A stretch of 24,000 bases of DNA from Candidatus Ornithomonoglobus sp. (GCA_045537455.1 JAZSPM010000193.1:1-24000), one strand, 5' to 3'. Numbered from the stretch's first letter, positions 4,625 to 24,000 are shown. Translations and numbers: made by a program. The notes: generated by a model from the letters alone, not told the origin.

Positions 4625-4706
4625 ATTTTTCTCCTGATTGTGATTTGGTTCCTATATTATACCACATCACCGAAGAAAAATCAACACCTTGAAAGGAAGT
4701 GATCCT

Positions 4707-7286: not shown

Positions 7287-7341
7287 AAGGCGAGTTTTAA
7301 AGTTTTTAAACCGTCATATTTCAGTCGGAATGGAGGATTTT

Positions 7342-8613: not shown

Positions 8614-8642
8614 TTGCATTTTAATGTTTCTTGTGATACAAT
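8614..8642 (+). promoter_or_regulatory. sigma-A promoter with extended -10 for the regulator-kinase operon
   Basis: TTGCAT (8614-8619), a 17-nt spacer, then TGaTACAAT (8634-8642). The predicted transcription start near 8650 excludes the upstream in-frame starts at 8614 and 8644. Confidence 0.55.
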
Positions 8643-8676
8643 TATGAAAAAGAGTATTATTGAGAGGATTGGTTTT

Positions 8677-9408
8677 ATGTTGAGGATCGCAATTGTGGAT
8701 GACGAGGAGCATATTTGTGAGCAAGTGGAACGTTTATTACAGGAATGTTCTAAACAGATAAATGTTGACTTCCAAATAGAAATTTTTTATTCAGGTGAAG
8801 CGTTAATTTCAAAGTTAAAAGATGATGAAAAATTTGATTTAATCTTCCTTGATATTGAATTGTATCAATATAATGGTATAGACGTTGGACATTTTATTCG
8901 AGATGAATTGCTTGATGATTCTACTCAAATAGCATTTATATCGGGCAAGAATGGTTACGATAGACTTCTGTTTGAATTTAGACCAATACATTTTATTGAG
9001 AAACCTGCGACGTTGAGTAAAATACAAAACGTAATTACAAAGTATATTCGTATCTATGGACAACAAGGTGATGTGTTTAATTATAAAGTTAACAGAGACA
9101 CTTATTATGCTGATGTAAATAAAATCCTGTATTTCAAAAGTGATGACCGTAAGGTGATAATAGTAAGCAAAGATGATATCGATGAATTTTATTATTCAAT
9201 AGAAAAAATAGCACAGCAGTTAAAGAATAAAGGATTCTTTGTTCCTCACAGGAGTTATTTGGTGAACTATAGATATGTAAAATCTTTTCAGCTTAAGAAG
9301 ATTATTATGACTAATGGTGATGAGATACCGATCTCTGAAAACAGGAGGGCAGACGTCTTAAAAATACAGGTAATTATGGAAAATGGAGGTAAATTCTATG
9401 GACTTTGA
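8677..9408 (+). CDS. agrA: LytTR-family response regulator (AgrA-like)
   Basis: GAGAGGA at 8662-8668 precedes ATG 8677 (MLRIAIVDDEEH...). There is a receiver domain (IFLDIEL phospho-acceptor context). The C-terminal LytTR domain reads ILYFKSDDRKVIIV...FFVPHRSYLVNYRYVKSF...MTNGDEIPISENRR. Confidence 0.85.
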   Translation: MLRIAIVDDEEHICEQVERLLQECSKQINVDFQIEIFYSGEALISKLKDDEKFDLIFLDIELYQYNGIDVGHFIRDELLDDSTQIAFISGKNGYDRLLFEFRPIHFIEKPATLSKIQNVITKYIRIYGQQGDVFNYKVNRDTYYADVNKILYFKSDDRKVIIVSKDDIDEFYYSIEKIAQQLKNKGFFVPHRSYLVNYRYVKSFQLKKIIMTNGDEIPISENRRADVLKIQVIMENGGKFYGL

Positions 9409-10669
9409 TTTGTACACATGGGTTTACCTTATAACAAATCTATTTACGCTTGCAATTGTTCATAGGTTTATGGGAGCTTTTTTTGACGAAATAATTAAGC
9501 CTAAATGGCATATAATTATTTCGTATGCGTTGTACTTTGTTTTTACCAGTGCGATGTATCTAATATGGGATATACCCGTACTTGCGATGATAGTCAACTT
9601 AATACTACTCTTTGTTATAACGTTGAATTATAGATCTAGCTTAAGAAAAAAACTTTTTGTTGTAATATTCTTTTATATTTTTATGTTTGTTACTGAAGTT
9701 ATAGTATGTGCGGTGACGGGATATTTCAATTTTCCTATGTTTAATAGTGGTAATTACAATAATTCAACAGGACTGGTAGTAATGAGATTGGTTGCTTATT
9801 TAGAATCTATAGTTTTTTGTAATATAAAGTCTTTAAGGAAAAATGATATTGTTACTATACCACAATGGATAGCAACATTATTTATTCCAATTTCAACTCT
9901 TGTTATGAAAGTACTTGTTGTTGATTCTGAAAATGCTAGTCAGTTTCAAGTAATCTCATCGACAATAATCATATTTTTGATTAATCTTCTTACGTTTTTC
10001 TTATATAATTCTTTATCTAAAAGTTATGCTAAAGAAAAAGTGACTGCACTAATAAGTAAAGAAAAGGAAATGTACTATAATCAATGTCTTCTTATGCAAG
10101 AAACTAATGAGCATTTACAGGGTTTTCGTCATGAAATAAACAATCAATTTATATCGATGAAGGAGTTAATAAATAAACATATGTATAATGAATTAGATGC
10201 TTTTGTTGAGAAACTTACTGAAAAACTTGAAATAGAGAAAATATACAGCAATACAGGGAATGTTGTAGTTGACAGTATAATCAACTACAAGTTAAATCTA
10301 TTAAATAATGCTGATGTTGTAACAGAAATAGCAGTACCATCTTCGTTAGAAGTTGATATAAATGACATGGTTATCATATTAGGTAATATTCTTGATAATG
10401 CGGTTAAGGCACTTAATGAAAATGAAAAGGATTCAAAGTTGTATTTTAAGTTAGTATATAGTCAAGGAAGATTACTCATAAAAGAAACGAATACCTACAA
10501 AACAAGAATATGTTATGAAAACGGTAAAATTCAATCAAGCAAAGCAGATAAAGCCAATCATGGTTTGGGCTTGAAAAATGTAGAGGATGCTGTTAAAAGA
10601 CATGATGGATATATGGAGATAAATCATAATGACAATATTTTTTCAATAGATATCATATTGTTTGTTTAA
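9398..10669 (+). CDS. agrC: AgrC-like membrane sensor histidine kinase (GHKL, HPK10-type)
   Basis: GGAGG at 9385-9389 precedes ATG 9398, and the start overlaps the regulator stop by 11 nt. The N-terminal half has about 6 hydrophobic helices. The H-box is FRHEINNQF, the N-box is LGNILDNAVKA and the G-box is NHGLGLKNVEDAV. Confidence 0.85.
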   Translation: MDFDLYTWVYLITNLFTLAIVHRFMGAFFDEIIKPKWHIIISYALYFVFTSAMYLIWDIPVLAMIVNLILLFVITLNYRSSLRKKLFVVIFFYIFMFVTEVIVCAVTGYFNFPMFNSGNYNNSTGLVVMRLVAYLESIVFCNIKSLRKNDIVTIPQWIATLFIPISTLVMKVLVVDSENASQFQVISSTIIIFLINLLTFFLYNSLSKSYAKEKVTALISKEKEMYYNQCLLMQETNEHLQGFRHEINNQFISMKELINKHMYNELDAFVEKLTEKLEIEKIYSNTGNVVVDSIINYKLNLLNNADVVTEIAVPSSLEVDINDMVIILGNILDNAVKALNENEKDSKLYFKLVYSQGRLLIKETNTYKTRICYENGKIQSSKADKANHGLGLKNVEDAVKRHDGYMEINHNDNIFSIDIILFV

Positions 10670-10683
10670 CAAATAATAGTATA

Positions 10684-10718
10684 ATGCCTTGTAAGTAAAT
10701 TGCTTACAAGGCATTTTT
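10684..10718 (+). terminator. strong intrinsic terminator after the kinase gene
   Basis: atgccttgtaag-taaattg-cttacaaggcat is a perfect 12-bp stem followed by tttt. Confidence 0.8.
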
Positions 10719-10771
10719 ACTGCAAATAACACAGGATTTCACAGCAATCAAAATAAAATACAATTTTTTAA

Positions 10772-10780
10772 TGCTATAAT
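10772..10780 (+). promoter_or_regulatory. extended -10 promoter element upstream of the AgrD-like ORF (activator-dependent type, no good -35)
   Basis: TGcTATAAT lies at 10772-10780. The -35 position (about 10752-10757) reads aataaa, a poor match as in activator-dependent agr promoters. ACAG-type imperfect direct repeats lie upstream at 10731, 10741 and 10760. Confidence 0.5.
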
Positions 10781-10817
10781 AAACCTGCCAAAAAATATAA
10801 AATAAAGGGGTGTTATT

Positions 10818-10961
10818 ATGAGAAAATTTTTAATTAAATTTAGCGGATTATTTGCAGCATTCGCATTATGTGTTACAACTTTAACTGAGAATTCAACTTG
10901 TTTTTTTTGTGCTCATCAGGAAGAAATGCCTGCTAATTCAAAGAAACTCCGTAAATTTTAA
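10818..10961 (+). CDS. agrD: AgrD-like autoinducing-peptide precursor (47 aa; below the ORF-track size cut-off)
   Basis: My translation is MRKFLIKFSGLFAAFALCVTTLTENSTCFFCAHQEEMPANSKKLRKF. It has an amphipathic leader, a Cys-containing core and a charged tail. The tail Pro lies 6 residues after the predicted cleavage point (CFFCA|HQEEMP), the same spacing as S. aureus CDFIM|DEVEVP. The RBS is AAAGGGG at 10804-10810. The stop overlaps the agrB-like start (TAATG at 10959-10963). Confidence 0.75.
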   Translation: MRKFLIKFSGLFAAFALCVTTLTENSTCFFCAHQEEMPANSKKLRKF

Positions 10962-11542
10962 TGTTTAGGGATATTTCATCAAAATTAACAGACAAGCTTA
11001 TAAGCTTAAAAACAATTGATCCAGAAGATAGAGAAATATATGAATTTGGAATACAGCATATTTTTATTACTATTTTTAATATATCTACAGTTCTACTACT
11101 TGGACTTCTGCTAGGTGATCTTAAGGAGGCTATGATTTTTATTTTTGCTTTTATACCATTAAGGATATTTGCAGGAGGTTTCCACTTTAATTCACCAATA
11201 ATGTGCTACATATTTTCTTCATGCTTTGTAGCGGTAGTTCTTTTGGCAATGAGATATTTAAGCATTCCGCTTCTCATTTACTGCTTGCTATATTGCCTGT
11301 CTGGTATTATAATACTGACTTTTGCACCGGTAGAGGATAAGAATAAGCCTTTGGATCAGCTTGAAAAAAAGGTGTACAGGAAAAGAACGATAATTGTATT
11401 TGTTGCAGAAAATATGATTATGTTGTTATTCTGCTCCTTAAAATTCTACATTGCAGCAAAATGTATTATGGTGTCAATAATTGCTTTAGGATTATTAATT
11501 GTTTTAGGCGTAATAAAAAATTATTTGCTAAGCGTCAAATGA
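10961..11542 (+). CDS. agrB: AgrB-like membrane endopeptidase (AIP maturation)
   Basis: 193-aa polytopic membrane protein. The motif PLRIFAGGFHFNSPIMCY has His and Cys 7 residues apart, as for the catalytic H77/C84 pair of S. aureus AgrB. It is translationally coupled to the AgrD-like ORF. Confidence 0.8.
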   Translation: MFRDISSKLTDKLISLKTIDPEDREIYEFGIQHIFITIFNISTVLLLGLLLGDLKEAMIFIFAFIPLRIFAGGFHFNSPIMCYIFSSCFVAVVLLAMRYLSIPLLIYCLLYCLSGIIILTFAPVEDKNKPLDQLEKKVYRKRTIIVFVAENMIMLLFCSLKFYIAAKCIMVSIIALGLLIVLGVIKNYLLSVK

Positions 11543-11647: not shown

Positions 11648-11746
11648 ATGAGAAATTTAAATAATCTCAAAAGAGTAGTAAGCGGTGTTCTTAGTGTTAC
11701 TTTGCTGGCTAACTTTGGAACAATATTTCCGATGAATGCATTTGCC
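11648..11746 (+). other. Sec-type signal peptide of the toxin
   Basis: MRNLNNLKRVVSGVLSVTLLANFGTIFPMNAFA|NEE has a basic n-region, a hydrophobic core and an AFA cleavage-type site. Confidence 0.7.
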
Positions 11747-14700
11747 AATGAAGAAATTGAAGAACAAGCAGACTCTATTAATGAAACAACTGGTCACAGG
11801 TACCAATTAATTGATACATCGATGAGTTGGACCGAAGCTGAGGAGTATTGCGAAAGCCTTGGTGGACACCTTGTTACAGTAAATTCAAGCGATGAGCAGC
11901 AGTTCATTGTTGATAATCTGTTAACAATAGGAACAAAAAATGCATACTTTATCGGTATGTACAGAGATGACATTGATAGTGACTGGAAATGGGTAACAAA
12001 CGAATCTACCGAATTTTTTAACTGGGATGAAGGAGAACCAAGCTATACAGATGATAATTATGTGTATATGTATGGTTCAAATTTCAATTCAGGCAGTTGG
12101 AAAAACACGCAGAACTATGTAGAGGATTCAACTGAATTCTCAACAGCTAATATAGGTTATATATGTGAATGGGAAGCTGAAGAATCTGAAGTTGAAGTAG
12201 AGAGAAGAATGAAGAACTACGCTCTTTTTTCAGCAAGCAGTTCAACAGATTTCAGTTATTCTGGCTGGAAAAGTAATATCATAGGCAATATTTATAGTGG
12301 TTCATCTTTTAAATATGGTGGATCAGAGTTCAGCGTTACAGGAAGGGTTGATACCGTAAATTCTATTTCTGCTGATGGCTGGAAGATAGAAATCAATGAA
12401 AGAAATGAAAACATTGCTCCAGTGGAAATGGAAGATTTTGATAAGGTTATTCATGATAACGCACAGCCCTATGATTATTACGAAGAAAATACTGTGTATA
12501 TACAGGATTTGAATGTAATAGATAAGTCGATAAAGATTTCTGGCGACGTTGAAATCGGCGGAACAACTTTTGAAGGTGATTGCTATATTATTGCCGACGG
12601 AAATATTACATATAATGTTAATGATTTCAATTCTACAGGCAGGGTATTCTTATACTCCCAAAACGGAAATATTACTATAAATGGAACAAACGTTAACATA
12701 AACGGAGGCATTTATGCACCTAATGGTAACGTTTCTTTTAATATATACGAAACAAATCTTAATGGTTTTGTATGGGCTGACAGTATAACATATAGTGGCA
12801 GTATTTTTAATGTAACTGCTAATAATTTTGATATGCTTGAACCGAGAAGTGTAGTTAAGACTTATACTATCGATGCCGATTTTAACGAGGGACAGTTCAA
12901 CGGACTTGGCTTGGATGTTTCTGATGAATTGACTTTAACATCTGGCAATAAAGCAGTTGAAACACCTTCTGAAAGAATATATGGCGATTCGGAAACCGGC
13001 AAAGGAGTAAAGGTTACTTATTCAACAGATAAATCTGCTGTCACAGGTGATGGAGATAATGTTACTGTAAAGTACGGACTTGGCGGATTCGGTGAAGCAG
13101 ATGTAACTGAAAATGCAGTTGATCTTATTATTGTAGTTGATGAATCCGGTAGCATGGCCGGAAATCGTATGACAAATACTAAGTCAGCAGCAAAACAGAT
13201 TATTTCACAAATGAAGGAAGTTGATCGTTGTGCGGTTGTTGGATTTACCGGCAGTTCAAATGTAAAACAGAATCTGACATCTGACAAAGATTTGCTTAAT
13301 AAAGCTGTTGATAAACTTTATGCTAGTGGCGGAACTGCGATTTACTCAGGAATTGATAAAGCACTTGCAATGTTTGATGAACAGAGTGAGGATAGTAGAC
13401 AGAAATATATTATTCTTTTATCAGATGGCGAAGACGGATATGAAGCACGTTCTCTTCAATCAGCAACAACTGCTGGCAATAGCGGAATACGAATTTTCTC
13501 AATGAAAATCGGAAGCGGAACTCTTCAGATGCAGAATATTGCTATCAATAGCAATGGAATATATAAGAATGCACCTACAGCAGATGATATTGTTAAAATA
13601 ATGTCATACTTTGCTTCTGAAGTGTTTAACGTAGCAGGAAGAAACACCACATTTAAGACTACTATCAAGGATATAAATTCTGTTGATATTTCTTCTCTTA
13701 GTCCAGAACCCTCAAAAATAATGGAAAACGACGACGGAAGCGTTTCTGTTGAATGGAATTTTGATAGAATAACTATCGATGAAGAAATGGAAATTAATAT
13801 TCCTTTGACTGTAACTGGCGATAATAACGGATTTGTTGACCTTCTTGAAAATACATCATGCGTCTATTACGATAGAAATGGTAAACCAAATGTAATATAT
13901 GCCGAAGATGCATTTTTACCGATAAGCGATTATGTTGATAATGGTAACTGGACAGTTATTTTTGATAGTGAAAGAGAAACTGTTGAGTGGGATAAAATTT
14001 ACTGGAATGGTAACAGATATGGTGATGGTGAAATTTCAGTATATGTTTCTTCCAGTAATGATGGAGAGAATTTCTCAGAGCCTGTCAAGATTGAAAACTT
14101 TGAACAATTCTCTGGCGTGGTAGGCAGATATGCTAAAATTAGTGTAGATATGAAAGTATCTGCTGATGGAAGAACCCCTGAGTTGTATGACATTACAATT
14201 GTATCAAAGGATGCAGTTGTTACAGATTTAGAAAACAATTCCCCTGTCGCAGAGATTGTTTCAAAGAATAATACTAAAGTTAATGTTCCGATGACAGTTA
14301 GAGCTGATCTTGCAGATGATTGCCTGAAATCAAATATAACTGTTTCATGGGACTGCGAAAGTGACAATTTGAAGTTTTCTAGTTCTTCAGAACTAATTAC
14401 ATCTGTAATTTGTTCCGAAACAGGAAGCTATGAAATAATCTGTACTGTAAATGACGGTGAAAAAACTGTTCAAAGTTCAAAAACTATTGTTTGTGAACCG
14501 GCAGATAGCTATGCAAATATTGATCCTGATAATCAGGACGAGGCTGCAGCACCTGAAATCAATGTTGTACTTCCTAAATATGCTGACAGAAAAGAAACCA
14601 TTAACGCACAGATTGAAAAGCTTAATGATACAGAAATTTCCTGGTATTCTGTAATTTTCAATGGTAATACAGCAGTTGATGTAACTGATGATGGAGCATT

Positions 14701-17700
14701 TTCTCTTGTTATGCCTAATAAAGATGGAACCTATAAGGTTGTTGTCAGAGCATTTGATTGGGCTGGTAAGTCTGATGTTAAGGAATATTCTATAATAGTT
14801 GACAGTACTGTAGCTGCTATTGAAATAAAGCCATCTTCTGAGGAAACAACAATCAATTCAGATGCATATTTCAAAGTATCAGTCGCTGCTGCTCATAAAA
14901 TTAAAGAAATTGTTTATACTTTGAACGGAAAGCAGATTGCCATTCCCGAAGATGGCATTTTACCTGTAGATACCAATGTTGAAGCAGAATATGTTCTTGA
15001 AGCTAATGGTATTACTACATCCGGTAAAACGCTTAAAGCTTCTGCAAAGATTACTGTAATTGAAGAAGATTCAGAAAAGCCTGTTGTTAATATCACTTTT
15101 GATAAAAATAGCTATAACGAGAAACAGAATGCTGTTATAACAGTAAAAGCAACTGATAATGTAGGTGTAACTTCACTTGTTGTATTACTTGATGGTAAGG
15201 AAATCGTTCTTGACGGCAATGGACAGTTTTCGATTACAAATATGAAATACGGTGAATACGTTATTACAGCAAATGCTTATGATGAAGCAGACAATAATGG
15301 TAGTGCTACAAAAACATTAACCGTAAAGGATGTAACAAAGCCTACCCTTTCATTAACTGTTGATAAAACGGAAATAGACGTTGGAGAAACAGTTAATATT
15401 TCTGTTGACGCTGCTGATAACAATGGTGTTGTAAATACAGTATTAACTGTAAATGATAAAGAACTGGAACTTTCAGAAGATAACTCTGTATCTTTCAAAC
15501 CTGATACAGCAGGGACATATACTATAAAGGCTGTAGCATCTGATCCTTCTGGAAATAGTCTTACAAAGAAGGTAACTGTCACAGTTAAAGAAGTTGATAC
15601 AATTGCTCCAATTGTTACTATTTCCTTTGATAAGGATACTTATTTTGAAACTGATGATATTGTAATTAATGTTTCCGCAACAGACAATGTTGGAGTAACC
15701 GATATAGCCTTATTAATTGACGGAACTGAAGTTGAACTTAATGCAGAAAATTCATACACTATAAAAAAAGCTGAATTAAAGAATTATACAATCACAGCTA
15801 AAGCTTATGATGAAGAAACCAATGAAGGAACTGCTACTGAAACTGTTGTAGTAAATGAAGCAAAAGCACCAGAGATTAATGTAACATTTGACAAGGACAT
15901 TTACAATGAAGGCGATTCTTTACAGGGTCTTGTAACAGTTCAGGGTCAGAGCGAAATTATCTCTCTTACAGCAAAAGTGAATAATCAGCCTTTAGCACTT
16001 GAAAACGGTATATTTACACTTAGTAATCTTGAAGCAGGTGAATATACATTTACCTTTACTGCTGAAGATGTAAGAGAAAAGACATCAACAATTAATAAAA
16101 CCATTACTGTTATTGATGAAGAACATAAAGCTGATGAGAGATTGTATGCTGTTGTTGATGGTCTTGTTGAGTATGGTAAATCAGCAATGTACAAGGTTAC
16201 AGCCTCAGATGATATTGATAAGTCTACTATTTTAGTAACCTTAAACGGTGAAAAAATTGAACTGACGGATGAATATACATACGAATTTAAGGGCGAAAAA
16301 CTTTTTACAAATGAATTCATTTTAACAGCAGAAACTGTTGATGGTGAAATTCTTACTGTTAAAAATTCAGTGCTGGTTTACGAAACTGAAAAACCAACTG
16401 TTACAGTAGTTCTTAATAAAGACAAGGATATTCAGGAACATGATGATATTGTAATAACAATAACTGCAGAAGATATTTCCGGAATAAGAAAAATCCAGTG
16501 CTTATATGATGGCGTAGAAATTCCTCTTGATGAAAACGGACAGATGTTCATCAATGATTTTGAAGTAAGACCTCATTCGGTTGTTATAAGAGCATGGGAT
16601 AATTTCGGTAACCTCAGATCATATCTCCTTTCATTCTATGTAGTAGAAACAGAAGTATCAGGCGGTGGTTCTGTTTCTGTTGGTGGCAATACAGAAGATA
16701 CAGAGTCCAAAACATTGATTGCGGATATTTATACACCAATTAATGAAGATGTCATTTCTTGTCCTTCGTATATTTTCGGTCGTGCAGACGGTACAGAATT
16801 TGAAAAATACAGATTGGAATACCAGTCAGCAGCAGGTGGAGATTATGTTCTTATCAGCGAAGGAACAGAAAAAGTAAATAATGGTTCTTTAGGTGAATTT
16901 GATACAACTATGCTCCGAAACGGACTTTATAACATCAAGCTTACTGTATGGGGTAAGAACGGTGAAGTAACCTCTGATGAAATTATTGTTTCTGTTGAAG
17001 GTGAGATGAAAATCGGTAACTTCTCACTTGATTTTCAAGATATGGATCTCAATGTAGCTGGAGCTCCGGTTACAGTAATAAGGGGCTATGACAGCCGTGA
17101 CAGAAACATAAGCGGAGATTTTGGCTATGGTTGGAATCTCTCTACCTGCGGTGTAACTGTTACAAAGAGCTGTGACCTTAGTCGTAATTGGGATATGCAG
17201 CAAAAAGGATATAATATTTCTTACACCCCCACAAAACCTCATATTATATCAGTTAACTGGGGTAATGGCAAAGTTGAGAAATTTGTAATGGAAGCTAAAA
17301 GTGATGGTGCATCAACATTGAAAACAGCTTCATTCACTTTCAAGTCAATGGATGGAAGTAACTCTAAACTTTTCCCAAATATTACAACTGGAGCATGGAT
17401 TTATGAAAACGGGTATTTCTTTAAGTTAGATGAAGAGTGGGATGATATACCTTTTAATCCGGATGTATGGCAATTAAATAAAGCTGATGGTACAAAGTAC
17501 CTTATTAGCTGTACAAATGGAATTTTAGCTTTTGCTGATGCAAATGGAAATCAGATTAAATTTAATAAGGATGGAATTGAAAACTCTGATGGTGAAGAAA
17601 TTTCAATTATTCGTGACAGTAATGACAGAATTACAAGCATTTCATCTCCAACAGGTAAAACAGTTTCATATGAATATGATGAAAATGGAGATCTTGTAAA

Positions 17701-20700
17701 GGTTATTGATATTTCAGGATATGAAACAACCTTTGAATATGATAATCATTATCTTACTGCTATTATCGATCCCAGAGGTGTAACAGTATCAAGAAATATT
17801 TATGATGATAACGGCAGACTTATCAAAACAATTGATGCAGACGGAAATGAAATCGTTTACGACCATGACATTGACGGTCGTGAAGAAACCATTACCGACC
17901 GCAATGGTGGAATTACAAGATACGTTTATGACCATAACGGAAATGTGACTTCACAGACCGATCCAATGGGCAATACTGTAAAGAATACCTACGACAGTAA
18001 TGGTAATCTTTCATCAAAAACTGATGCTATGGGCAATGTAACCAATTACAGTTATGATGATAACGGCAATATGCTTGGAATGACAGATGCCGAGGGAAAT
18101 ACTGTTACAAATGAGTATAACTCCAAAGGCTTTATTACATCAATTAATGCTATGGGCATTGATATTATGAGCGTTACATATGACGAAAAAGGCAATACTT
18201 CATCAACTATTGACGCTCTGGGTAATGAAATTAATTACAGCTATGACAGCAAGGGTAATCTTGAGTCTGTTACTGATGAAATAGGTACATATATGAATAT
18301 GACCTATGACAGCAAGGGAAATGTAATTTCTGCAACAAACGGTGCTGGTACAACGGCTGAATTTACGTATGACAGCGACGGAAACTGTCTTTCTAAAACG
18401 CTTACATATACATCGGGCGAAGTGACAAAGACCGTCACAGAAAATTATACATATGATGAATCTGGAAATCTCGTTAAAATTATTGATAGCGATGGAAATA
18501 TTACAACAACAGAATATAACAGCATTGGTAAAATTTCTGTTGCTACAGATGAAAAGGGCAGACAGACCTTATATGATTATGACAGTCTTGGAAATGTTAT
18601 AAAGATTACCTATGCCGACGGCACTTCTGAATCCTTTACATATGACCGTGAGGGTAATAATCTGACAGCAACAGATAGACTTGGCAGAACAGTTACAATG
18701 AAATACGACAAGGTTGGAAACCTTATCAGCAAAACCTATCCAAATGGTGCAGCTGTAAAGTATACATACGATGCAAATTATAATCTTACATCAACCATAA
18801 GTGCAAGCGGCAATGAAACCAAGTATGAATATGATGCAATTGGCAGAAATACCGTAATCATTGACGCACTTGGAAATCACACAGAATTCACATATAACTC
18901 TCATTCTCAGCTTAGCAGTATGACCGATGCGAACGGAAATGTGTATACCTATACCTATGATGATAATGGTAACAGAACAGCTACCACATATCCTGACGGT
19001 TCAAGTGTTTCTTCCGCATATGATGCAAGAGGCCGTGTAATAAGTCAGACTGATCAGCATGGATATACAACTTCATATACATATGACGGTGCTGACCGAC
19101 TTACAAGCGTTACTGACGCACTCAGCAATGTGACAAGCTATACTTATAACGAAGTTGGAAATCTTATTAAAGTAACCGATGCAAATAATCATTCTACACT
19201 TTACACTTACGATGATTTCAGCAGAGTAATTAAAACAACAAATGCACTTGGCCAAACAGCTGAGGTTACATATGATATCTGCGGAAATGTTCTGACATCA
19301 ACAGATTTCGGAGGAAAGCTTACTTCATTCACATATGATGAGTTTGATAGGGTTATCGAAAAGAAAACTGCTGACGGTACAGTAACATATTCCTATACAA
19401 CAGACGGAAAGCTTTCATCCGTTACAGACAAGACAGGTACTACAAAGTATACTTATGACAGCATGGATGGGCTCAAAAAAGCAGTATATCCTAATGGCGA
19501 ATATGTTGAATACACCTATGATGATGCAAGCAGACTGACAGGAGTAAAAACTTCTTACGGCACAACATCCTATGAATATGATAAGCTTGACAGACTTGTA
19601 AGAGTTGTAGACAGAAACGGATATGCTACAGTATATGAATATGACAAAAATGGTAACAGGTCAGCTGTAAGATATGCCAACGGAATTGTAATAACTTACA
19701 AATATGACGAGGTAAACCGACTTATATGCGAAAAAGCCCTTGACAAACAAGGTGGAATTGTGGCACAATATGAATATACCCTTGGTGCAGCAGGAGAGCG
19801 AACAGCAGTCAAGGAACTTGACCGTACAGTAGAGTACACATATGATGCGCTTTACAGACTGACAAGCGAAAAGATAACTGCGGCTGACGAAACTGTAACA
19901 GAGTATACATACGCTTATGATAATGTAAGCAACCGTATCTTGAAAACCGAAAATGGTGCTAAAACAGTCTATACCTACAATGCTCTCAATCAGCTTGTAA
20001 AGGAAAATGACGCTGTTTACAAGTATGACGATGCAGGAAATCTTATTTCCACAACATCGGCAGATAAGTCAGCTACATATACTTACAATGCTGAAAATAA
20101 GCTGATTCGTGCTACTGTTCAGGAGGGCAATAATGTTTCTGTTGAGGAATATGAGTATGACTATGCAGGAAACAGAATCGTAAAGAAGTCTGAAAACGAC
20201 TATACTTATTATCTGAATGACATAAGCGGAAGTCTTACACAGGTTCTTGCAGAGCTTGATGCGGACGGAAATGAAAAGTGCTGGTACACAAGAGGAATTG
20301 AAATTATTTCTCAGGAGCGTAACGGTGATGTTTCATACTACCTTACAGACGGTCATGGTTCAGTAAGACAGCTTTCTGATTCTACTTGTGCAATAACGGA
20401 TACTTATGTATATGACGCATGGGGCAATTTGATTTCATCAACTGGCAATACTGAAAATAGCTATCTCTACTGCGGCGAACAGCTTGACAGCACAACAGGT
20501 CTTTATTATCTCCGTGCGAGATATATGAACCCCACAACAGGTACGTTTATCTCAATGGATACGTATCAGGGTACAATTTTCGACCCGACTTCTCTGCATA
20601 AGTATCTTTATGCTAATGCGAATCCTGTGATGAATGTTGATCCGAGTGGATATTTCACACTTGCAGAAGTAAATGTTTCAGGTGCTATAAACAATATTCT

Positions 20701-21841
20701 TGATAATTCAGCTACTCTGAATTATATGAGAATTTATCAAAATCTGAAGAGTAAACTTAATGCAATAAACAACATTCTTACACTTTACGATACAGCAAGA
20801 CAGATTGCAATGATAATCAACGATCCTGAATTGTCAGGCTGGCAGATGGTTGAAGGAATTGCATGCGGAGTTATTACCGGTTTGTTTATGAACCGTATGT
20901 GCCAGATGAAAGCAATAGGACCGATTATCAGTAAGGTGTTGACGGGATATGGTCTGGCAACGCAATGGCAAAGCATAATGGATGCTGCCAAAAACAAAGA
21001 CTGGGATTTGGTCGGCACACGTTCTATACAGCTCATACTCTCGCTTATGTCACTGCATCAGAATTGCTTTACAGGTGAAACCCTTGTTGCGGCAGAAAAC
21101 GGACAGAAGCGAATTGATGAAATTGAAGTCGGTGACAAGGTATGGGCGTATGACATCTTTACAGGTGAAACAGCACTCAAGGAAGTTACAAAGGTTTATG
21201 TCCATGAAGTAGATGAGATACTGCACCTGTACACTTCATGCGGAGATATCGACACAACAACAAATCATCCGTTCTATGTTATTGAGCGTGGTTGGGTAGC
21301 GGCTGGCGACCTTGTTGAAGGTGATGAAATCTATCTTCTTGACGGGTCAACTGCTGTTATAACCGGTTCTGAACTTGAACAGCTTTCTGAAACGATTAAG
21401 GTTTATAACCTTGAGGTTGCGGATTTCAATACCTACTTTGTTGGCGATAATGCTGTTCTGGTGCATAACTATGATCGTAAGCCAAGATCGCCAAAATCAA
21501 ACGTTGATAGTGTTGATGTTCAAGATGGTAAAATTACTTATACTAAAACGAGTCCGGACAATGGTCAACAATACAGTGTTACATACAACGAGGATGGATT
21601 CCCTGATTTTTCCCCCTATCGTTATAGTGGAAATGACGGTAAAGGATTAGTGAAGATTGACTATTCTGGAGATAGATACACTGATTTTAATTTTGCAAAT
21701 CAGGCGGCTGGATTCCCAAGTACTCCAGACGGTTATACTTGGCATCATTTAGAAGATATGTCATCTATGGAACTGGTACTTACTGTTGTCCATAAACTGT
21801 TTCCACATACAGGTGGATTTGCGCTATTTAATAATCCTTAA
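11648..21841 (+). CDS. giant secreted RHS/YD-repeat polymorphic toxin (3397 aa): C-type lectin, vWA, Ig-like array, RHS shell, pre-toxin HINT, WHH nuclease
   Basis: Uninterrupted 10.2-kb ORF with GGGGAGGG at 11637-11644 before ATG 11648. The domains are listed separately below. All antisense ORFs inside it are short shadows. Confidence 0.95.
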   Translation: MRNLNNLKRVVSGVLSVTLLANFGTIFPMNAFANEEIEEQADSINETTGHRYQLIDTSMSWTEAEEYCESLGGHLVTVNSSDEQQFIVDNLLTIGTKNAYFIGMYRDDIDSDWKWVTNESTEFFNWDEGEPSYTDDNYVYMYGSNFNSGSWKNTQNYVEDSTEFSTANIGYICEWEAEESEVEVERRMKNYALFSASSSTDFSYSGWKSNIIGNIYSGSSFKYGGSEFSVTGRVDTVNSISADGWKIEINERNENIAPVEMEDFDKVIHDNAQPYDYYEENTVYIQDLNVIDKSIKISGDVEIGGTTFEGDCYIIADGNITYNVNDFNSTGRVFLYSQNGNITINGTNVNINGGIYAPNGNVSFNIYETNLNGFVWADSITYSGSIFNVTANNFDMLEPRSVVKTYTIDADFNEGQFNGLGLDVSDELTLTSGNKAVETPSERIYGDSETGKGVKVTYSTDKSAVTGDGDNVTVKYGLGGFGEADVTENAVDLIIVVDESGSMAGNRMTNTKSAAKQIISQMKEVDRCAVVGFTGSSNVKQNLTSDKDLLNKAVDKLYASGGTAIYSGIDKALAMFDEQSEDSRQKYIILLSDGEDGYEARSLQSATTAGNSGIRIFSMKIGSGTLQMQNIAINSNGIYKNAPTADDIVKIMSYFASEVFNVAGRNTTFKTTIKDINSVDISSLSPEPSKIMENDDGSVSVEWNFDRITIDEEMEINIPLTVTGDNNGFVDLLENTSCVYYDRNGKPNVIYAEDAFLPISDYVDNGNWTVIFDSERETVEWDKIYWNGNRYGDGEISVYVSSSNDGENFSEPVKIENFEQFSGVVGRYAKISVDMKVSADGRTPELYDITIVSKDAVVTDLENNSPVAEIVSKNNTKVNVPMTVRADLADDCLKSNITVSWDCESDNLKFSSSSELITSVICSETGSYEIICTVNDGEKTVQSSKTIVCEPADSYANIDPDNQDEAAAPEINVVLPKYADRKETINAQIEKLNDTEISWYSVIFNGNTAVDVTDDGAFSLVMPNKDGTYKVVVRAFDWAGKSDVKEYSIIVDSTVAAIEIKPSSEETTINSDAYFKVSVAAAHKIKEIVYTLNGKQIAIPEDGILPVDTNVEAEYVLEANGITTSGKTLKASAKITVIEEDSEKPVVNITFDKNSYNEKQNAVITVKATDNVGVTSLVVLLDGKEIVLDGNGQFSITNMKYGEYVITANAYDEADNNGSATKTLTVKDVTKPTLSLTVDKTEIDVGETVNISVDAADNNGVVNTVLTVNDKELELSEDNSVSFKPDTAGTYTIKAVASDPSGNSLTKKVTVTVKEVDTIAPIVTISFDKDTYFETDDIVINVSATDNVGVTDIALLIDGTEVELNAENSYTIKKAELKNYTITAKAYDEETNEGTATETVVVNEAKAPEINVTFDKDIYNEGDSLQGLVTVQGQSEIISLTAKVNNQPLALENGIFTLSNLEAGEYTFTFTAEDVREKTSTINKTITVIDEEHKADERLYAVVDGLVEYGKSAMYKVTASDDIDKSTILVTLNGEKIELTDEYTYEFKGEKLFTNEFILTAETVDGEILTVKNSVLVYETEKPTVTVVLNKDKDIQEHDDIVITITAEDISGIRKIQCLYDGVEIPLDENGQMFINDFEVRPHSVVIRAWDNFGNLRSYLLSFYVVETEVSGGGSVSVGGNTEDTESKTLIADIYTPINEDVISCPSYIFGRADGTEFEKYRLEYQSAAGGDYVLISEGTEKVNNGSLGEFDTTMLRNGLYNIKLTVWGKNGEVTSDEIIVSVEGEMKIGNFSLDFQDMDLNVAGAPVTVIRGYDSRDRNISGDFGYGWNLSTCGVTVTKSCDLSRNWDMQQKGYNISYTPTKPHIISVNWGNGKVEKFVMEAKSDGASTLKTASFTFKSMDGSNSKLFPNITTGAWIYENGYFFKLDEEWDDIPFNPDVWQLNKADGTKYLISCTNGILAFADANGNQIKFNKDGIENSDGEEISIIRDSNDRITSISSPTGKTVSYEYDENGDLVKVIDISGYETTFEYDNHYLTAIIDPRGVTVSRNIYDDNGRLIKTIDADGNEIVYDHDIDGREETITDRNGGITRYVYDHNGNVTSQTDPMGNTVKNTYDSNGNLSSKTDAMGNVTNYSYDDNGNMLGMTDAEGNTVTNEYNSKGFITSINAMGIDIMSVTYDEKGNTSSTIDALGNEINYSYDSKGNLESVTDEIGTYMNMTYDSKGNVISATNGAGTTAEFTYDSDGNCLSKTLTYTSGEVTKTVTENYTYDESGNLVKIIDSDGNITTTEYNSIGKISVATDEKGRQTLYDYDSLGNVIKITYADGTSESFTYDREGNNLTATDRLGRTVTMKYDKVGNLISKTYPNGAAVKYTYDANYNLTSTISASGNETKYEYDAIGRNTVIIDALGNHTEFTYNSHSQLSSMTDANGNVYTYTYDDNGNRTATTYPDGSSVSSAYDARGRVISQTDQHGYTTSYTYDGADRLTSVTDALSNVTSYTYNEVGNLIKVTDANNHSTLYTYDDFSRVIKTTNALGQTAEVTYDICGNVLTSTDFGGKLTSFTYDEFDRVIEKKTADGTVTYSYTTDGKLSSVTDKTGTTKYTYDSMDGLKKAVYPNGEYVEYTYDDASRLTGVKTSYGTTSYEYDKLDRLVRVVDRNGYATVYEYDKNGNRSAVRYANGIVITYKYDEVNRLICEKALDKQGGIVAQYEYTLGAAGERTAVKELDRTVEYTYDALYRLTSEKITAADETVTEYTYAYDNVSNRILKTENGAKTVYTYNALNQLVKENDAVYKYDDAGNLISTTSADKSATYTYNAENKLIRATVQEGNNVSVEEYEYDYAGNRIVKKSENDYTYYLNDISGSLTQVLAELDADGNEKCWYTRGIEIISQERNGDVSYYLTDGHGSVRQLSDSTCAITDTYVYDAWGNLISSTGNTENSYLYCGEQLDSTTGLYYLRARYMNPTTGTFISMDTYQGTIFDPTSLHKYLYANANPVMNVDPSGYFTLAEVNVSGAINNILDNSATLNYMRIYQNLKSKLNAINNILTLYDTARQIAMIINDPELSGWQMVEGIACGVITGLFMNRMCQMKAIGPIISKVLTGYGLATQWQSIMDAAKNKDWDLVGTRSIQLILSLMSLHQNCFTGETLVAAENGQKRIDEIEVGDKVWAYDIFTGETALKEVTKVYVHEVDEILHLYTSCGDIDTTTNHPFYVIERGWVAAGDLVEGDEIYLLDGSTAVITGSELEQLSETIKVYNLEVADFNTYFVGDNAVLVHNYDRKPRSPKSNVDSVDVQDGKITYTKTSPDNGQQYSVTYNEDGFPDFSPYRYSGNDGKGLVKIDYSGDRYTDFNFANQAAGFPSTPDGYTWHHLEDMSSMELVLTVVHKLFPHTGGFALFNNP
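11795..12175 (+). other. C-type lectin-like domain (CTLD)
   Basis: HRYQLIDTSMSWTEAEEYCESLGGHLVTVNSSDEQQFI...YFIGMYRD..DWKWVTNESTEFFNWDEGEPS...GSWKNTQN...GYICEWE. This matches the classic CTLD Cys, WxW and W..GEP pattern. Confidence 0.75.
12200..12840 (+). other. Asn/Gly-rich predicted beta-helix/solenoid segment
   Basis: Periodic short repeats such as GDVEIGGTTFEGDCYIIADGNITYNV, GRVFLYSQNGNITINGTNVNINGGIYAPNGNVSFNI, NGFVWADSITYSGSIFNV. The fold is inferred from periodicity only. Confidence 0.4.
13121..13630 (+). other. von Willebrand factor A (vWA) domain with MIDAS motif
   Basis: DLIIVVDESGSMAG (the DxSxS motif), then ASGGTAIYSGIDKAL, then YIILLSDGEDG. Confidence 0.8.
14234..16645 (+). repeat. 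array of about 9 tandem Ig-like/PKD/cadherin-like beta-sandwich modules (85-95 aa each)
   Basis: Module starts and ends recur. Examples are KPVVNITFDKNSYNEKQNAVITVKATDNVGVTSLVVLLDGKEI...TLTVKD, APIVTISFDKDTYFETDDIVINVSATDNVGVTDIALLIDGTEV...TVVVNE and KPTVTVVLNKDKD...ITITAEDISGIRKIQCLYDGVEI. The repeats are divergent at the DNA level. Confidence 0.7.
17598..20200 (+). repeat. RHS/YD-repeat shell region
   Basis: Dozens of units of the form G..t.Y.YD..GNl.s.tD..Gn.t, for example TVSYEYDENGDLVKVID, TRYVYDHNGNVTSQTDPMGNT, YTYTYDDNGNRTATTYPDGS. They are preceded by the usual FGYGWNLS entry motif (near nt 17120). Confidence 0.9.
20225..20650 (+). other. RHS repeat-associated core domain with autoproteolysis motif
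   Basis: YYLTDGHGSVRQLSD...YVYDAWGN...YCGEQLDSTTGLYYLRARYMNPTTGTFISMDTY...LHKYLYANANPVMNVDPSGY. The P-x-x-x-x-DP-x-G motif lies at nt 20624-20650. Confidence 0.85.
20651..21064 (+). other. helical/hydrophobic pre-toxin linker (PT-TG-like)
   Basis: A segment of about 137 aa between the RHS core and HINT. It has hydrophobic stretches and TG dipeptides (GIACGVITGLFMNRM, ISKVLTGYGLATQW). The family assignment is tentative. Confidence 0.35.
21065..21469 (+). other. pre-toxin HINT (Hedgehog/intein-like) autoprocessing domain
   Basis: It starts with CFTGETLVAAENG (Cys-1 at nt 21065), has the block B-like TTTNHPFYV, and ends with FVGDNAVLVHN (Asn at 21467-21469). The +1 residue is Tyr, so it would cleave but not splice. 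Confidence 0.85.
21296..21472 (+). repeat. HINT 3' homology block, resident copy (recombination handle)
   Basis: gtagcggctggcgaccttgttgaaggtgatgaaatctatcttcttgac...attaaggtttataaccttgaggttgcggatttcaatacctactttgttggcgat...gtgcataactat has near-identical partial copies at 22931-23041 and 23716-23820. Confidence 0.85.
21470..21838 (+). other. C-terminal WHH-type HNH/EndoVII-fold nuclease toxin domain
   Basis: DFNFANQAAGFPSTPDGYTWHHLEDMSSMELVLTVVHKLFPHTGGFALF. The WHH triplet lies at nt 21740-21748 and is followed by the H...H-x-GG signature. Confidence 0.75.
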
Positions 21842-21860
21842 ATCTGATACAAAAACTACT

Positions 21861-21897
21861 ATAAGGAGAGATAATAAATTAATATATCTCTCCTTAT
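21861..21897 (+). other. 13-bp perfect hairpin between toxin and immunity genes (no U-tract)
   Basis: ataaggagagata-(11 nt)-tatctctccttat is followed by gaaaatt, so it is not a canonical terminator on the + strand. Confidence 0.5.
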
Positions 21898-21929
21898 GAA
21901 AATTAAAAGATTAATATAATGGAGGAATA

Positions 21930-22853
21930 ATGGAAGATTTTTTAAAATGGATAAAAAACACGTTTGATACTAACTTGCCAAATGATTATCTGCAATTTTT
22001 GTTATCTTATGATGAAAGTAGTGTTGTAGGAAAAGTTTTTCAGTTTTTTGAAAATGAAAAATTAACCTCAACTGATATTCATTATTTTTTTAAAATAGGA
22101 AAAAACAAAATGAATTGTATCGAATGGAATTATAATAATTATTTATCAGAGGATATAATTCCAGCATTTTTCCTACCTATAGCGGAAGATAGTGGAGGCA
22201 ATCTTATTTGTTTAAGCATGGATGTTGAGAATTACTCTCGCATATATTTTGTTTTACATGATAGCTTTGAAATGACATATTTTTTTGTAGCTAATAGTTT
22301 TTCAGAATGGTGTTCAAAGATGTATTCTCAACAGATAAATAGGCAAAATGATGAAAGTAATACTATCTATACATTTAAAAAATATGGTAGCGGGATTTAT
22401 TCAAATGGCATCACCAAAGATAGTTCCAATGTAGATGTATCGGAGTTTTCCTACAGTACTATTGACGAATTTATGGCTAGAGAAAAAATAGATTTTCCAC
22501 TTTTGTTGTACAACTTTTACAGTTCAACAGACGGAATAGAAATCAATAGAAAAATTGAGTTTATTTGCAAAAAAACAAAATTTTCTGTAGAAATATCAAC
22601 TGTTTTGCCTTTTGATGAGGCTGAAAAGAAATATTATAAAATGGCTAAGTCTGAACCTAAAATGGCAGATTATTTCCCTATTGCTATATCATCCAATATA
22701 AATTTTATAGCATTGCTAAAAGTACGTAAAAAAAATAAGGGAAAAATATATTTTTGGAACGCGTTCAACAGAGATATCGTTGAGGCATATGATTCAGCAG
22801 ATGATTTTTTGGGTGAACTAGGTATTGAACCTCATTCTCTTGATGAATCTTAA
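21930..22853 (+). CDS. tandem SMI1/KNR4 (SUKH) domain immunity protein, presumed cognate to the WHH toxin
   Basis: GGAGGAA precedes ATG 21930. Domain 1 reads LPNDYLQFLLSYDES...IAEDSGGNLICLSMD...FVANSFSEWCSKM. Domain 2 reads IDFPLLLYNFYSSTDG...FPIAISSNINFIALL...IYFWNAF...AYDSADDFLGEL. It lies directly 3' of the toxin gene. Confidence 0.8.
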   Translation: MEDFLKWIKNTFDTNLPNDYLQFLLSYDESSVVGKVFQFFENEKLTSTDIHYFFKIGKNKMNCIEWNYNNYLSEDIIPAFFLPIAEDSGGNLICLSMDVENYSRIYFVLHDSFEMTYFFVANSFSEWCSKMYSQQINRQNDESNTIYTFKKYGSGIYSNGITKDSSNVDVSEFSYSTIDEFMAREKIDFPLLLYNFYSSTDGIEINRKIEFICKKTKFSVEISTVLPFDEAEKKYYKMAKSEPKMADYFPIAISSNINFIALLKVRKKNKGKIYFWNAFNRDIVEAYDSADDFLGELGIEPHSLDES

Positions 22854-22906
22854 CTTTACTAATTAGTAAGAAGATTAATTAACCTAAAATAACCAATTAG
22901 CTTTTC

Positions 22907-23359
22907 TTGTTGACAGTTCAACCGATCGTAACAGGTGCAGAACTTGAAAAGCTTACTGAGCCAATTAAGGTTTATAACCTTGAGGTTGAGGATTTCAATA
23001 CCTACTTTGTTGGTGATGAAGCTGTTTTGGTGCATAATTATCTTGATAAAAGTGATCATGCAAAGCATAGGCAGGCTGAAGGAAGAAATGTAGGTACTGC
23101 TGGACACGATTTGAATAATGCGAGACCTTCGGATGTTTACATTCAAAATAATGATGGTCGCTATGTACTTAAGGGAAATAATGGGAGAGTTCATATATTT
23201 GAACCAGATGGAGAACTTGTAACAACAATGAATAAAGTTACCAATTTCTCAAAACGAGTATCAAGTGGAAGATATTCTCCATTAAGTCTTAAACAAATAT
23301 CAGAATTTATAGAAATCTTTGGCGAATTTTTAAATAAGAATTGGAATGGATACAGATAA
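22907..23359 (+). CDS. orphan toxin cassette: HINT C-terminal fragment fused to an alternative, unassigned toxin domain (no credible start or RBS of its own)
   Basis: The frame opens right after TAG 22898-22900. Residues VTGAELEKLTEPIKVYNLEVEDFNTYFVGDEAVLVHNY match the resident ITGSELEQLSETIKVYNLEVADFNTYFVGDNAVLVHNY. The sequence then diverges into LDKSDHAKHRQAEGRNV...DGRYVLKGNNGRVHIFEPDGELVTTM (105 aa). Confidence 0.75.
   Translation: MLTVQPIVTGAELEKLTEPIKVYNLEVEDFNTYFVGDEAVLVHNYLDKSDHAKHRQAEGRNVGTAGHDLNNARPSDVYIQNNDGRYVLKGNNGRVHIFEPDGELVTTMNKVTNFSKRVSSGRYSPLSLKQISEFIEIFGEFLNKNWNGYR
22931..23041 (+). repeat. HINT 3' homology block, orphan copy 1
   Basis: aaggtttataaccttgaggttgAggatttcaatacctactttgttggTgatGAAgctgttTtggtgcataaTtat differs from the resident 21398-21472 at only a few positions. 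Confidence 0.85.
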
Positions 23360-23670
23360 TGAAGAAGTCTAATTTATCATATTTGGAAAAAATATATCGA
23401 CGATATATAGAAGATGTTGCTATGGAAATATCTATAGATAAAAAGTTTAGGGATAGATTATTAAATGCTTCATATGGGGAACAACTGGAAATATCTCAAA
23501 AAACGGCAAGCCACTGCAAGTATTTAAACCATATCCTATCAAAAGGACTTGTATTTGTAGTTGAAAAGGTTTACGAGTGTACAGAAACATTTGATAAGGA
23601 CTTAACAATTTTTAAATTTTCTGCAAAAGATTTTCCTAACATCATAAGATATACTGGTAATAATATTTAG
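23359..23670 (+). CDS. small hypothetical protein, presumed immunity partner of the orphan toxin cassette
   Basis: ATG 23359 overlaps the cassette stop (TAATG at 23357-23361), the same coupling as agrD/agrB. The product is 103 aa (MKKSNLSYLEKIYRRYIEDVAMEIS...). I recognise no family. The role is inferred from position. Confidence 0.6.
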   Translation: MKKSNLSYLEKIYRRYIEDVAMEISIDKKFRDRLLNASYGEQLEISQKTASHCKYLNHILSKGLVFVVEKVYECTETFDKDLTIFKFSAKDFPNIIRYTGNNI

Positions 23671-23691
23671 CAATTTTCCTGTTCAGCGAAA

Positions 23692-23844
23692 ATGATCACT
23701 GTTTTGTATACAGTTGTCGCTGGTGACCTTGTTGAAGGCGATGAAATCTATCTTCTTGACGGCACTGTTGCGTATGTAACTGGTTCTGAGCTTGAGCAGC
23801 TTTCTGAAACTATAAAGGTTGTTCATTGTTTCACAACCGTATAA
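23692..23844 (+). pseudogene. second, truncated HINT-fragment remnant (degenerate orphan cassette without toxin tip)
   Basis: VAGDLVEGDEIYLLDGTVAYVTGSELEQLSETIKV matches the resident AAGDLVEGDEIYLLDGSTAVITGSELEQLSETIKV. Homology stops at 23820, followed by VHCFTTV and a stop. Confidence 0.7.
23716..23820 (+). repeat. HINT 3' homology block, orphan copy 2
   Basis: gtcgctggtgaccttgttgaaggcgatgaaatctatcttcttgacggc...ggttctgagcttgagcagctttctgaaactataaaggtt aligns with the resident 21299-21403. Confidence 0.8.
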
Positions 23845-23857
23845 TTTAATATGTATT

Positions 23858-23894
23858 ATCCTGACTAAGACATTGTTCTTGGTCAGGATTTTTT
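23858..23894 (+). terminator. intrinsic terminator closing the toxin/cassette locus
   Basis: atcctgactaag-acattgtt-cttggtcaggat forms a 12-bp stem with one G-U pair, followed by ttttt. Confidence 0.75.
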
Positions 23895-24000
23895 ATGCCC
23901 TTTTTTATGCTATGATGTTGAGTGATATGTAGAAATTTTTATCAAGTAGATGATACGTATTGAAAAAATACAGTGTAAACTTCAAAATTTGACAAGTTCT

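Follow-up and report, generated by a model that had tools for sequence, protein, structure and literature searches.

Part of one gene is present three times at this locus. The window, the whole stretch of 24,000 nucleotides (nt) from Candidatus Ornithomonoglobus sp. (GCA_045537455.1 JAZSPM010000193.1:1-24000) that was analysed, contains a full-length RHS polymorphic toxin gene (11648..21841, 3397 amino acids [aa]; open reading frame [ORF] call and Pfam) in which a HINT domain directly precedes the toxin tip. Pieces of that HINT sequence recur twice further downstream, once ahead of a second toxin and immunity gene pair (orphan 1) and once as a short fragment (orphan 2). An initial annotation took the arrangement for a toxin-tip replacement array in which the HINT copies act as recombination handles. 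Our analysis favours, with a probability of about 0.85, the reading that we have here the variable 3' end of an RHS polymorphic toxin locus whose product is Sec-exported by a Gram-positive host, and that exchange between the HINT copies is evolutionary, not programmed. All features of the toxin locus described below lie on the plus strand.

Three HINT copies with homology at the DNA level

The resident copy of the repeated segment (21302..21472, by alignment) has 21302-21403 in common with orphan 2 and 21334/21360-21472 in common with orphan 1. The orphan 1 handle is a 143-nt fragment of the HINT 3' end that terminates in HNY (22899..23041; alignments, PT-HINT profile positions 100-136), and orphan 2 is an internal HINT fragment that ends after ETIKV (23713..23820; repeat finder and codon alignment). 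The repeat finder returns two direct repeats: 113 nt at 88% identity (21360-21472 versus 22929-23041, orphan 1) and 102 nt at 84% identity (21302-21403 versus 23719-23820, orphan 2). Both are upheld by codon-by-codon alignment, in which orphan 1 corresponds to aa 3238-3275 and orphan 2 to aa 3217/3219-3252 of the toxin; the three blocks had been placed correctly to within 2-3 nt. The longest exact matches in the two repeats are 25 nt and 23 nt, and the BLAST E-values range from 1e-27 to 1e-37.

The similarity between the copies exceeds protein constraint and is at the DNA level. The resident copy and orphan 1 use the identical codon at 26/31 conserved residues (15.7 expected from the codon usage of the gene, p ~8e-5), and the resident copy and orphan 2 do so at 21/31 (14.1 expected, p ~0.008). 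Where the initial annotation had spoken of DNA-level near-identity and proposed an alignment that might reveal protein-level similarity only, codon identity is above expectation for both orphans and the DNA level is borne out, but near-identity is too strong a term for copies that are 84-88% identical and have no exact run longer than 25 nt.

Orphan 1 is as had been described: its homology ends at LVHN-Y, after the Tyr codon (21470-21472 and 23039-23041), with Tyr at +1 in both copies, and base identity over the next 40 codons is 23%. Orphan 2 is different. It lacks the last 23 HINT codons, HN|Y included, and is not a 3'-end copy; nor does it retain a longer HINT segment, as had been thought, since in bases it is not longer than orphan 1. 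The claim of three copies of the HINT 3' segment can be kept for orphan 1 and has to be given up for orphan 2, an internal piece that stops short of HN|Y.

The homology ends at the predicted cleavage site because the +1 Tyr is the last residue needed by the release machinery, and we take the end at HNY to reflect selection on modular boundaries, not a special mechanism. VENN in CdiA and DPxGL in Rhs follow the same boundary logic, each motif being a self-cleavage site as well. The coincidence of boundary and cleavage site had been singled out as exceptional; it is usual in Rhs.

Length variants in public contigs

The window's own arrangement is found at 99.96-100% identity in two public contigs, L003 and L004 (related contigs and loci carry L numbers here). 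In others, the orphan 1 toxin is the in-frame tip of an RHS-HINT gene: the RHS backbone is 95.5% identical to the window in L001 and L002 (two ENA assemblies) and 90% identical in L005-L009 (JGI contigs, from 12, 3 and 1 samples). All of these fused forms are joined at HNY|LDKSDH and continue into the same immunity gene and then orphan 2. The recombinant that had been predicted from the window, RHS-HINT fused at HNY to the orphan 1 toxin and followed by its immunity gene, is in this way present in independent metagenome assemblies, as a full-length gene in other strains.

A second kind of variant is represented by L019, which is 99.8% identical to window positions 20821-21402 (582 nt) and then, after ETIKV, runs straight into the orphan 2 tail and terminator. 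Judged by its sequence, L019 would be a toxin-less gene, equivalent to a fusion of the resident copy with orphan 2. It is a single short contig (2384 nt) of a metagenome-assembled genome, labelled Ruminococcus sp. Past the terminator, L019 (660-2384) is unrelated both to the window and to the right flank of L001, so that this locus end is found in a third genomic context.

The third kind concerns the orphan-1 handle and orphan 2. In L010, orphan 1 stands behind another locus with a longer handle (from NHPFYVI). L011 and L012 match L010 at 99.3% identity to the left and at 90-93% to the right but lack a 747-nt unit, which is bounded exactly by direct HINT repeats (the orphan-1 handle and orphan 2 pair). 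Each of the three HINT copy pairs is thus the boundary of length variants that occur in nature.

Mosaic structure and breakpoints

Mismatches between L001 and the window are strongly clustered (Fisher p ~1e-17 to 1e-22): there are 23 in the orphan-1 handle (22899-22993), 1 in the toxin, immunity gene and spacer (22994-23727), 17 in the orphan-2 HINT patch (23728-23804) and 0 in the tail and terminator (23805-23898). L006 and L010 show the same pattern. The orphan-1 handle has 17-23 mismatches to L001, L006 and L010, and the ~700 nt downstream of it have 1-2. A cassette that is ~99.9% identical is carried on backbones that are 90-95% identical, and the transition from divergent to identical sequence falls within the last 50-80 nt of HINT. 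Breakpoints lie at the equivalent of 21424-21445 in L001, at ~23028 in L006 and at ETIKV in L019.

The orphan 2 patch occurs in two forms within otherwise identical flanks, one in the window and L010 and one, resident-like, in L001, L011, L012 and L019; this is a gene-conversion signature. The orphan-1 handle of the window is nearest (87%) to the HINT allele of L011, not to its own resident copy. Upstream, L001 differs from the window at 1 position in 19827-20426 and at 73 in 20427-21472, with concentrations at 20527-20626 and 21227-21326. L001 was rejected as a simple deletion derivative of the window's haplotype, the last 1 kilobase being 7% divergent between flanks that are both ~99.8-99.9% identical. 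The idea that the HINT copies are recombination handles is supported in its core by the variants bounded by all three copy pairs; a programmed array and a simple deletion origin of L001 are not supported.

HINT domain, toxin release and the family-wide boundary

The HINT domain is a PT-HINT domain or BIL (bacterial intein-like) domain of the A type that extends from Cys3140 to His3273-Asn3274 (21065..21469; Pfam PF07591, PDB 2LWY). The PT-HINT match covers aa 3147-3274 (E 5.2e-25; 88.7 bits for PF07591 against a cut-off of 27.7), and the domain aligns end to end with PDB 2LWY, a 'bacterial intein-like domain' (E 2.7e-26), both with a VLVHN terminus. All A-type BIL motifs are present: Cys3140, TxxH (TTNH), VLVHN3274 and the non-nucleophilic +1 residue Tyr3275 (codon 21470-21472). 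A-type BIL domains are found in hypervariable regions of secreted proteins and have, as here, an N-terminal Cys, TxxH, a C-terminal His-Asn and no +1 nucleophile; they undergo C-terminal cleavage via the terminal Asn (PMC7765530). HINT has also been described as a releasing peptidase directly before the variable toxin, in systems in which toxin-immunity cassettes recombine (Zhang 2012, PMC3482391). By homology and this published BIL biochemistry, the domain would most likely free the toxin by cyclisation of Asn3274, and the released toxin would start at Tyr3275. The +1 Tyr is invariant in the Ruminococcus group and replaced by A, K or R in distant relatives.

A tblastn search of the HINT sequence against all fetched related loci places the boundary in a wider setting. 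In ~20 Ruminococcus-type loci, conservation stops at LVHNY and is followed by at least 14 unrelated tips; the comparison of strains that had been suggested as a check does reveal alternative tips at this junction, and the toxin part is variable as expected of a polymorphic toxin. Orphans in these loci are cut at HINT aa 18, 43, 53, 66, 70, 85, 90, 100 or 109, and all extend to HNY. In L020, L023 and L024, DNA homology between resident and orphan copies (81-85%) ends 1-3 nt past the Tyr codon. In distant relatives, the residues are VHN followed by A, K or R. The HINT coding sequence of L021 breaks off past ~aa 90 (4994-5257 and downstream), and the frame continues ...NRAENAIRPFTVGRKNWLF..., which we take to be transposase-like; this is probably an insertion sequence within HINT.

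Proposed explanation and alternatives

We propose that the DNA up to and including the Tyr codon would constitute the conserved delivery and release machinery, and that the DNA beyond it would be an exchangeable cassette of toxin plus immunity gene. An incoming cassette would recombine in the conserved part, and the old tip, pushed downstream, would keep a HINT stub. Orphan 1 would be such a displaced tip: promoterless, without a ribosome-binding site (RBS), frameshifted at its 5' end and probably co-transcribed, so that its immunity gene could stay useful. Orphan 2 would be an older, internal HINT remnant fused to the terminator of the locus, and the whole array may form one transcript. The HINT copies would remain substrates for RecA-type homologous recombination or gene conversion, and in one class of variant RHS, HINT, HNY and the orphan toxin are again joined in frame, with the release site left intact. 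Such exchange would play out over evolutionary time and in populations and would not be a programmed switch.

The most ambitious alternative, a dedicated and often-used switching array that changes toxin type within a strain's population in the manner of phase or antigenic variation, strikes us as decidedly unlikely. Its attraction is that the direct-repeat geometry gives an in-frame product and that natural variants bounded by each copy pair exist. Against it, the copies are just 84-88% identical and no exact run exceeds 25 nt, the orphan-1 handle has a frameshift and 17 lineage-specific substitutions, and deletion would be irreversible and would cost the strain its WHH/SUKH (resident toxin and immunity) pair. 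Moreover, L001 is not a direct derivative of the window's haplotype, and no contig was found that matches the window at 100% to the left as well as to the right of a junction (the closest, L019 at 99.8%, has a different tail allele). Exact runs of 23-25 nt sit near the lower limit for RecA-type recombination; given this level of identity and the decayed handle, switching within one genome or clone should therefore be rare. A dedicated recombinase or a core site at all junctions, as in shufflons or pilE/pilS-like programmed variation, was not found at this locus. Exchange at the HINT repeats by a neighbouring tyrosine recombinase (7330-8442, or one past the window end) is a further reading, and a very improbable one. 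The region does have a tyrosine recombinase gene on either side. Against this, the repeats are direct, but also long and imperfect, the breakpoints differ among L001, L006 and L019, and L001, L011 and L012 lack the downstream recombinase and have a dockerin-protein gene in its place. We rejected recombinase-driven exchange on account of the varying breakpoints and of a recombinase that is not conserved across contexts.

At the other extreme, the orphans could be inert relics kept for immunity against neighbours, with HINT stubs that have no further role in recombination. We consider this unlikely: the orphan immunity gene is indeed intact (100% conserved on 15 contigs) and handles do decay (the frameshift in the window; HNY to HKY in L010), but relics would not account for the two forms of the orphan 2 patch inside otherwise identical flanks, for the unit bounded exactly by HINT repeats that distinguishes L011 and L012 from L010, or for a cassette ~99.9% identical on 90-95% backbones with its transition inside HINT. 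It is scarcely credible that the fused forms are chimeric metagenome assemblies or that the similarity arose by chance. Repeats could in principle mislead assemblers, but the same fused structure recurs in independent ENA, JGI and Logan assemblies (one was seen in 12 samples), the exact repeats of 23-25 nt are far below the k=141 of the contig labels, and the E-values of the repeats (given above) speak against chance. Assembly chimeras were rejected in view of the agreement of independent assemblies and the shortness of the exact repeats.

Several points weigh against evolutionary exchange between the HINT copies, or against parts of the mechanism proposed for it. The direction of the events, deletion or insertion, is not readable from these contigs, and L019 could be a paralogue. 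The 7% divergence in the last 1 kilobase means that at least this pair, L001 and the window, is related via exchange with foreign DNA, and the resident array may almost never switch by itself, its exact runs being so short. Both cleavage and recombination are deduced from sequences. Splicing by A-type BIL domains has also been reported, going by the title of Dassa 2004 as cited in PMC7765530; given that report, simple C-terminal cleavage is not certain as the route of release.

A second swap boundary

In L012, L013, L030 and L031, homology to the window stops at 20654, directly after the end of the RHS core, PVMNVDPSGY (aa 2993-3002; 20624..20653), which is the classical Rhs boundary. The main genes of L012 (274-5602) and L013 (10-7041) run DPSGY|SAEND... 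into a HINT-less tip with its own immunity gene, and the whole unit of RHS stub, linker, HINT and toxin sits downstream as an orphan. The DPSGY end of the RHS core (aa 3002, nt 20653) acts as a first-tier swap point in relatives. The displacement at DPSGY in L012 and L013 thus puts the HINT boundary within the classical Rhs one, as a nested boundary. A full scheme of two-tier nested cassettes can be put forward only tentatively, and we regard it as doubtful: the whole linker-HINT-toxin unit would move at DPxGY in the first tier and toxin plus immunity gene at HNY in the second, with orphan 2, its tail and the terminator as the right-hand homology arm for insertion or excision by double crossover or a circular intermediate. 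The array of L023 ends with a HINT fragment of another breakpoint and has no terminator, which weakens the notion of a general 'designed' terminal arm.

Organization of the locus

The RHS toxin consists, in order, of a signal peptide, a C-type lectin domain, a von Willebrand factor A (VWA) domain, immunoglobulin-like domains, ~20 RHS repeats, a linker, PT-HINT and a WHH tip. Pfam matches in the ORF include RHS_repeat (E 2.9e-130, 20 stretches), VWA and Lectin_C. The N-terminus is a Sec-type signal peptide, MRNLNNLKRVVSGVLSVTLLANFGTIFPMNAFA, and the protein has the conserved delivery part of a polymorphic toxin system. The linker between the RHS core and HINT (20654..21064, by sequence inspection) contains hydrophobic helices and has no family match (Pfam, E<=10).

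The resident tip (21473..21841; Pfam and PDB sequence matches) is a WHH or colicin-DNase-like HNH nuclease (WHH 2.9e-12, Colicin-DNase 1.7e-11 in Pfam) and matches the Rhs nuclease tips 8BD1 and 8H8A in PDB sequence comparison. It is followed by a gene with two SUKH (SMI1/KNR4) domains (21930..22853; SMI1_KNR4 1.3e-22, two stretches, Pfam) and a strong RBS, TGGAGGAATAATG; from its position and family this is the predicted cognate immunity gene of the WHH tip. With a predicted immunity gene directly downstream of the toxin and a standalone cassette beyond it, the locus has the expected layout of a polymorphic toxin system. Exact look-up of the SUKH protein found none on record, an exact DNA pattern spanning the HNY|DRKPRS junction gave 0 matches in metagenome contigs, and a protein search of metagenome contigs with the WHH tip gave a best match of at most 52% identity and no second context for the resident WHH/SUKH cassette. 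Between the WHH stop and the SUKH start there is an 11-base-pair perfect hairpin (AAGGAGAGATA...TATCTCTCCTT; 21864-21897) without a T-run, which might serve in processing or stability, or else attenuate weakly.

The orphan 1 handle is in frame from 22928. Its 5' homology reaches ~22901-22905 and is frameshifted by a 2-nt deletion near 22923; in-frame stops occur at 22880 and 22898. As had been noted from the sequence, orphan 1 has no start codon or RBS of its own: the handle has no ATG or GTG start, and the sole candidate, a TTG at 22907, has no Shine-Dalgarno sequence of the kind seen before the SUKH gene. A 3' fragment homologous at the DNA level, a different tip and immunity gene and the lack of translation start signals are together what is expected of an orphan array. 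The orphan 1 toxin domain (23042..23359; 106 aa including the +1 Tyr) is the expressed tip of full-length RHS-HINT genes elsewhere (contig translations). It has no Pfam match at E<=10 and homologues that are few (n=9) and short. Against PDB sequences it gave only short, uninformative matches (query residues 27-79) to NHL-repeat/TRIM β-propeller domains, and its AlphaFold model (confidence, pLDDT, 83) has no Foldseek match in PDB at E<=0.001. A conserved pattern, Q..DGR.V..G..GRVH..E..GE.VTTMN.VTNF..RV..GR, is apparent in the domain. The copy of this toxin in L010 (344-694) has HKY for HNY, with loss of the catalytic Asn, and L->F at +2; the HKY change is consistent with decay of an unexpressed handle.

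The ATG of the predicted orphan 1 immunity gene (23359..23670, 103 aa; assigned by linkage) overlaps the toxin stop (TAATG). The exact 103-aa protein is found on 15 contigs, in each directly 3' of the orphan 1 toxin (exact protein look-up), and has no Pfam match. Toxin and partner (23042-23670) form a very small, unannotated family, a candidate new toxin/immunity pair.

Downstream of orphan 2 there are 7 codons, a stop and an intrinsic terminator. The conserved tail and terminator occupy 23821..23898 (stem 23858-23889 plus T-run; terminator scan and six-context alignment), and 23858-23889 is the sole intrinsic terminator within 21400-24000. The tail is non-coding, since 1-nt indels of L012 and L019 shift the frame there in the alignment of six contexts. 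Orphan 2 was considered as a real 50-aa gene and ruled out by these indels and by differing truncations in relatives. The fragment, tail and terminator are kept in at least 6 contigs, and homology to other genomic contexts stops at 23898 (BLAST end points). The small 'genes' at 22907-23359 and 23692-23844 are the orphan cassette and a pseudogene fragment, respectively.

Flanking genes

A complete agr-like quorum-sensing set lies directly upstream of the toxin gene on the same strand (8614-11542): a response regulator of the LytTR type (8614-9408), a histidine kinase of the GHKL type (9383-10669), an AgrD-like ORF of 47 aa (10818-10961; ...TENSTCFFCAHQEEMP...) and AgrB (10961-11542). The RHS toxin may be under quorum-sensing control. 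Further upstream of the array, 4689-7118 encodes a MobL relaxase that has Sel1 repeats and 7330-8442 encodes a tyrosine integrase, and a second tyrosine recombinase (302 aa) is encoded on the minus strand of L004 (1179-2087), ~140-1050 nt past the window end. The right flank of L001 and L010-L012, where homology to the window stops at 23898, carries a dockerin-protein gene. The locus may be on or beside a mobilisable element.

Comparison with known systems

The locus resembles the Rhs/YD-repeat toxins, with which it shares a conserved RHS body, a variable tip with an immunity gene, startless orphans that carry a 3' stub of the conserved region, recombination that fuses an orphan to the main gene and a boundary motif that is also an autoproteolysis site. 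C-terminal displacement in Rhs and orphan rhs-CT/rhsI modules were reportedly described by Jackson in 2009, by Poole in 2011 and, in Salmonella, by Koskiniemi in 2014. The classical DPxGY boundary is also present here (aa 2993-3002), and L012 and L013 have their swap point there; unlike in those toxins, there is a second boundary ~270 aa downstream, at the HINT end, which is the one used by the orphans of the window. In contrast to Rhs proteins of type VI secretion systems, the toxin has a Sec signal and a Gram-positive host, and no PAAR or VgrG was seen.

In class 1 MafB of Neisseria, mafB-CT cassettes begin with an A-type BIL/Hint, proposed as the shared sequence for recombination (Jamet 2015, PMC4287609; Arenas 2015, PMC4524018). 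As here, the conserved part is separated from the variable toxin by HINT/BIL, HINT sequence opens the orphan cassettes (with a TTG start and a truncated BIL), and strain comparison shows that a CT present as an orphan in one strain is expressed in another. Use of the HINT C-terminus as a handle, which the initial annotation had held to be what stands out, is a feature already described in those HINT/BIL-led orphan cassettes. The MafB body differs in being DUF1020, and its cassettes have a near-complete BIL (minus 7 aa) and are thought translatable, whereas the HINT stubs here, at 34-46 codons, cannot fold as HINT. BIL also precedes the variable CT in some Pseudomonas class I CdiA proteins (PMC4725963). 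Orphan arrays of cdiA-CT/cdiI in contact-dependent inhibition (CDI) systems, with their VENN boundary, are likewise similar in that a pre-toxin motif ends the homology and orphan pairs keep an upstream stub. Unlike CDI, the present system has a Gram-positive host and no TpsA/FHA repeat body, CdiB or VENN motif; the Pfam matches of the toxin and of neighbouring genes include no TPS domain, FHA repeats, VENN or cdiB neighbour.

The general scheme is known (Zhang 2012, PMC3482391), and what is mildly new is confined to the nesting of the boundary in two tiers and to the HINT fragment conserved at the end of the array; the understanding of polymorphic toxins is unchanged. What the locus adds is good documentation of a natural series of forms of an RHS toxin from a Gram-positive gut organism, comprising the full array and tip-switched, toxin-less and cassette-less forms, in which one toxin/immunity cassette has recently spread across backbones 5-10% diverged. 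The HINT release domain also marks the limit of DNA homology at which cassettes are exchanged, and the locus is a tractable case for recombination at short, imperfect handles.

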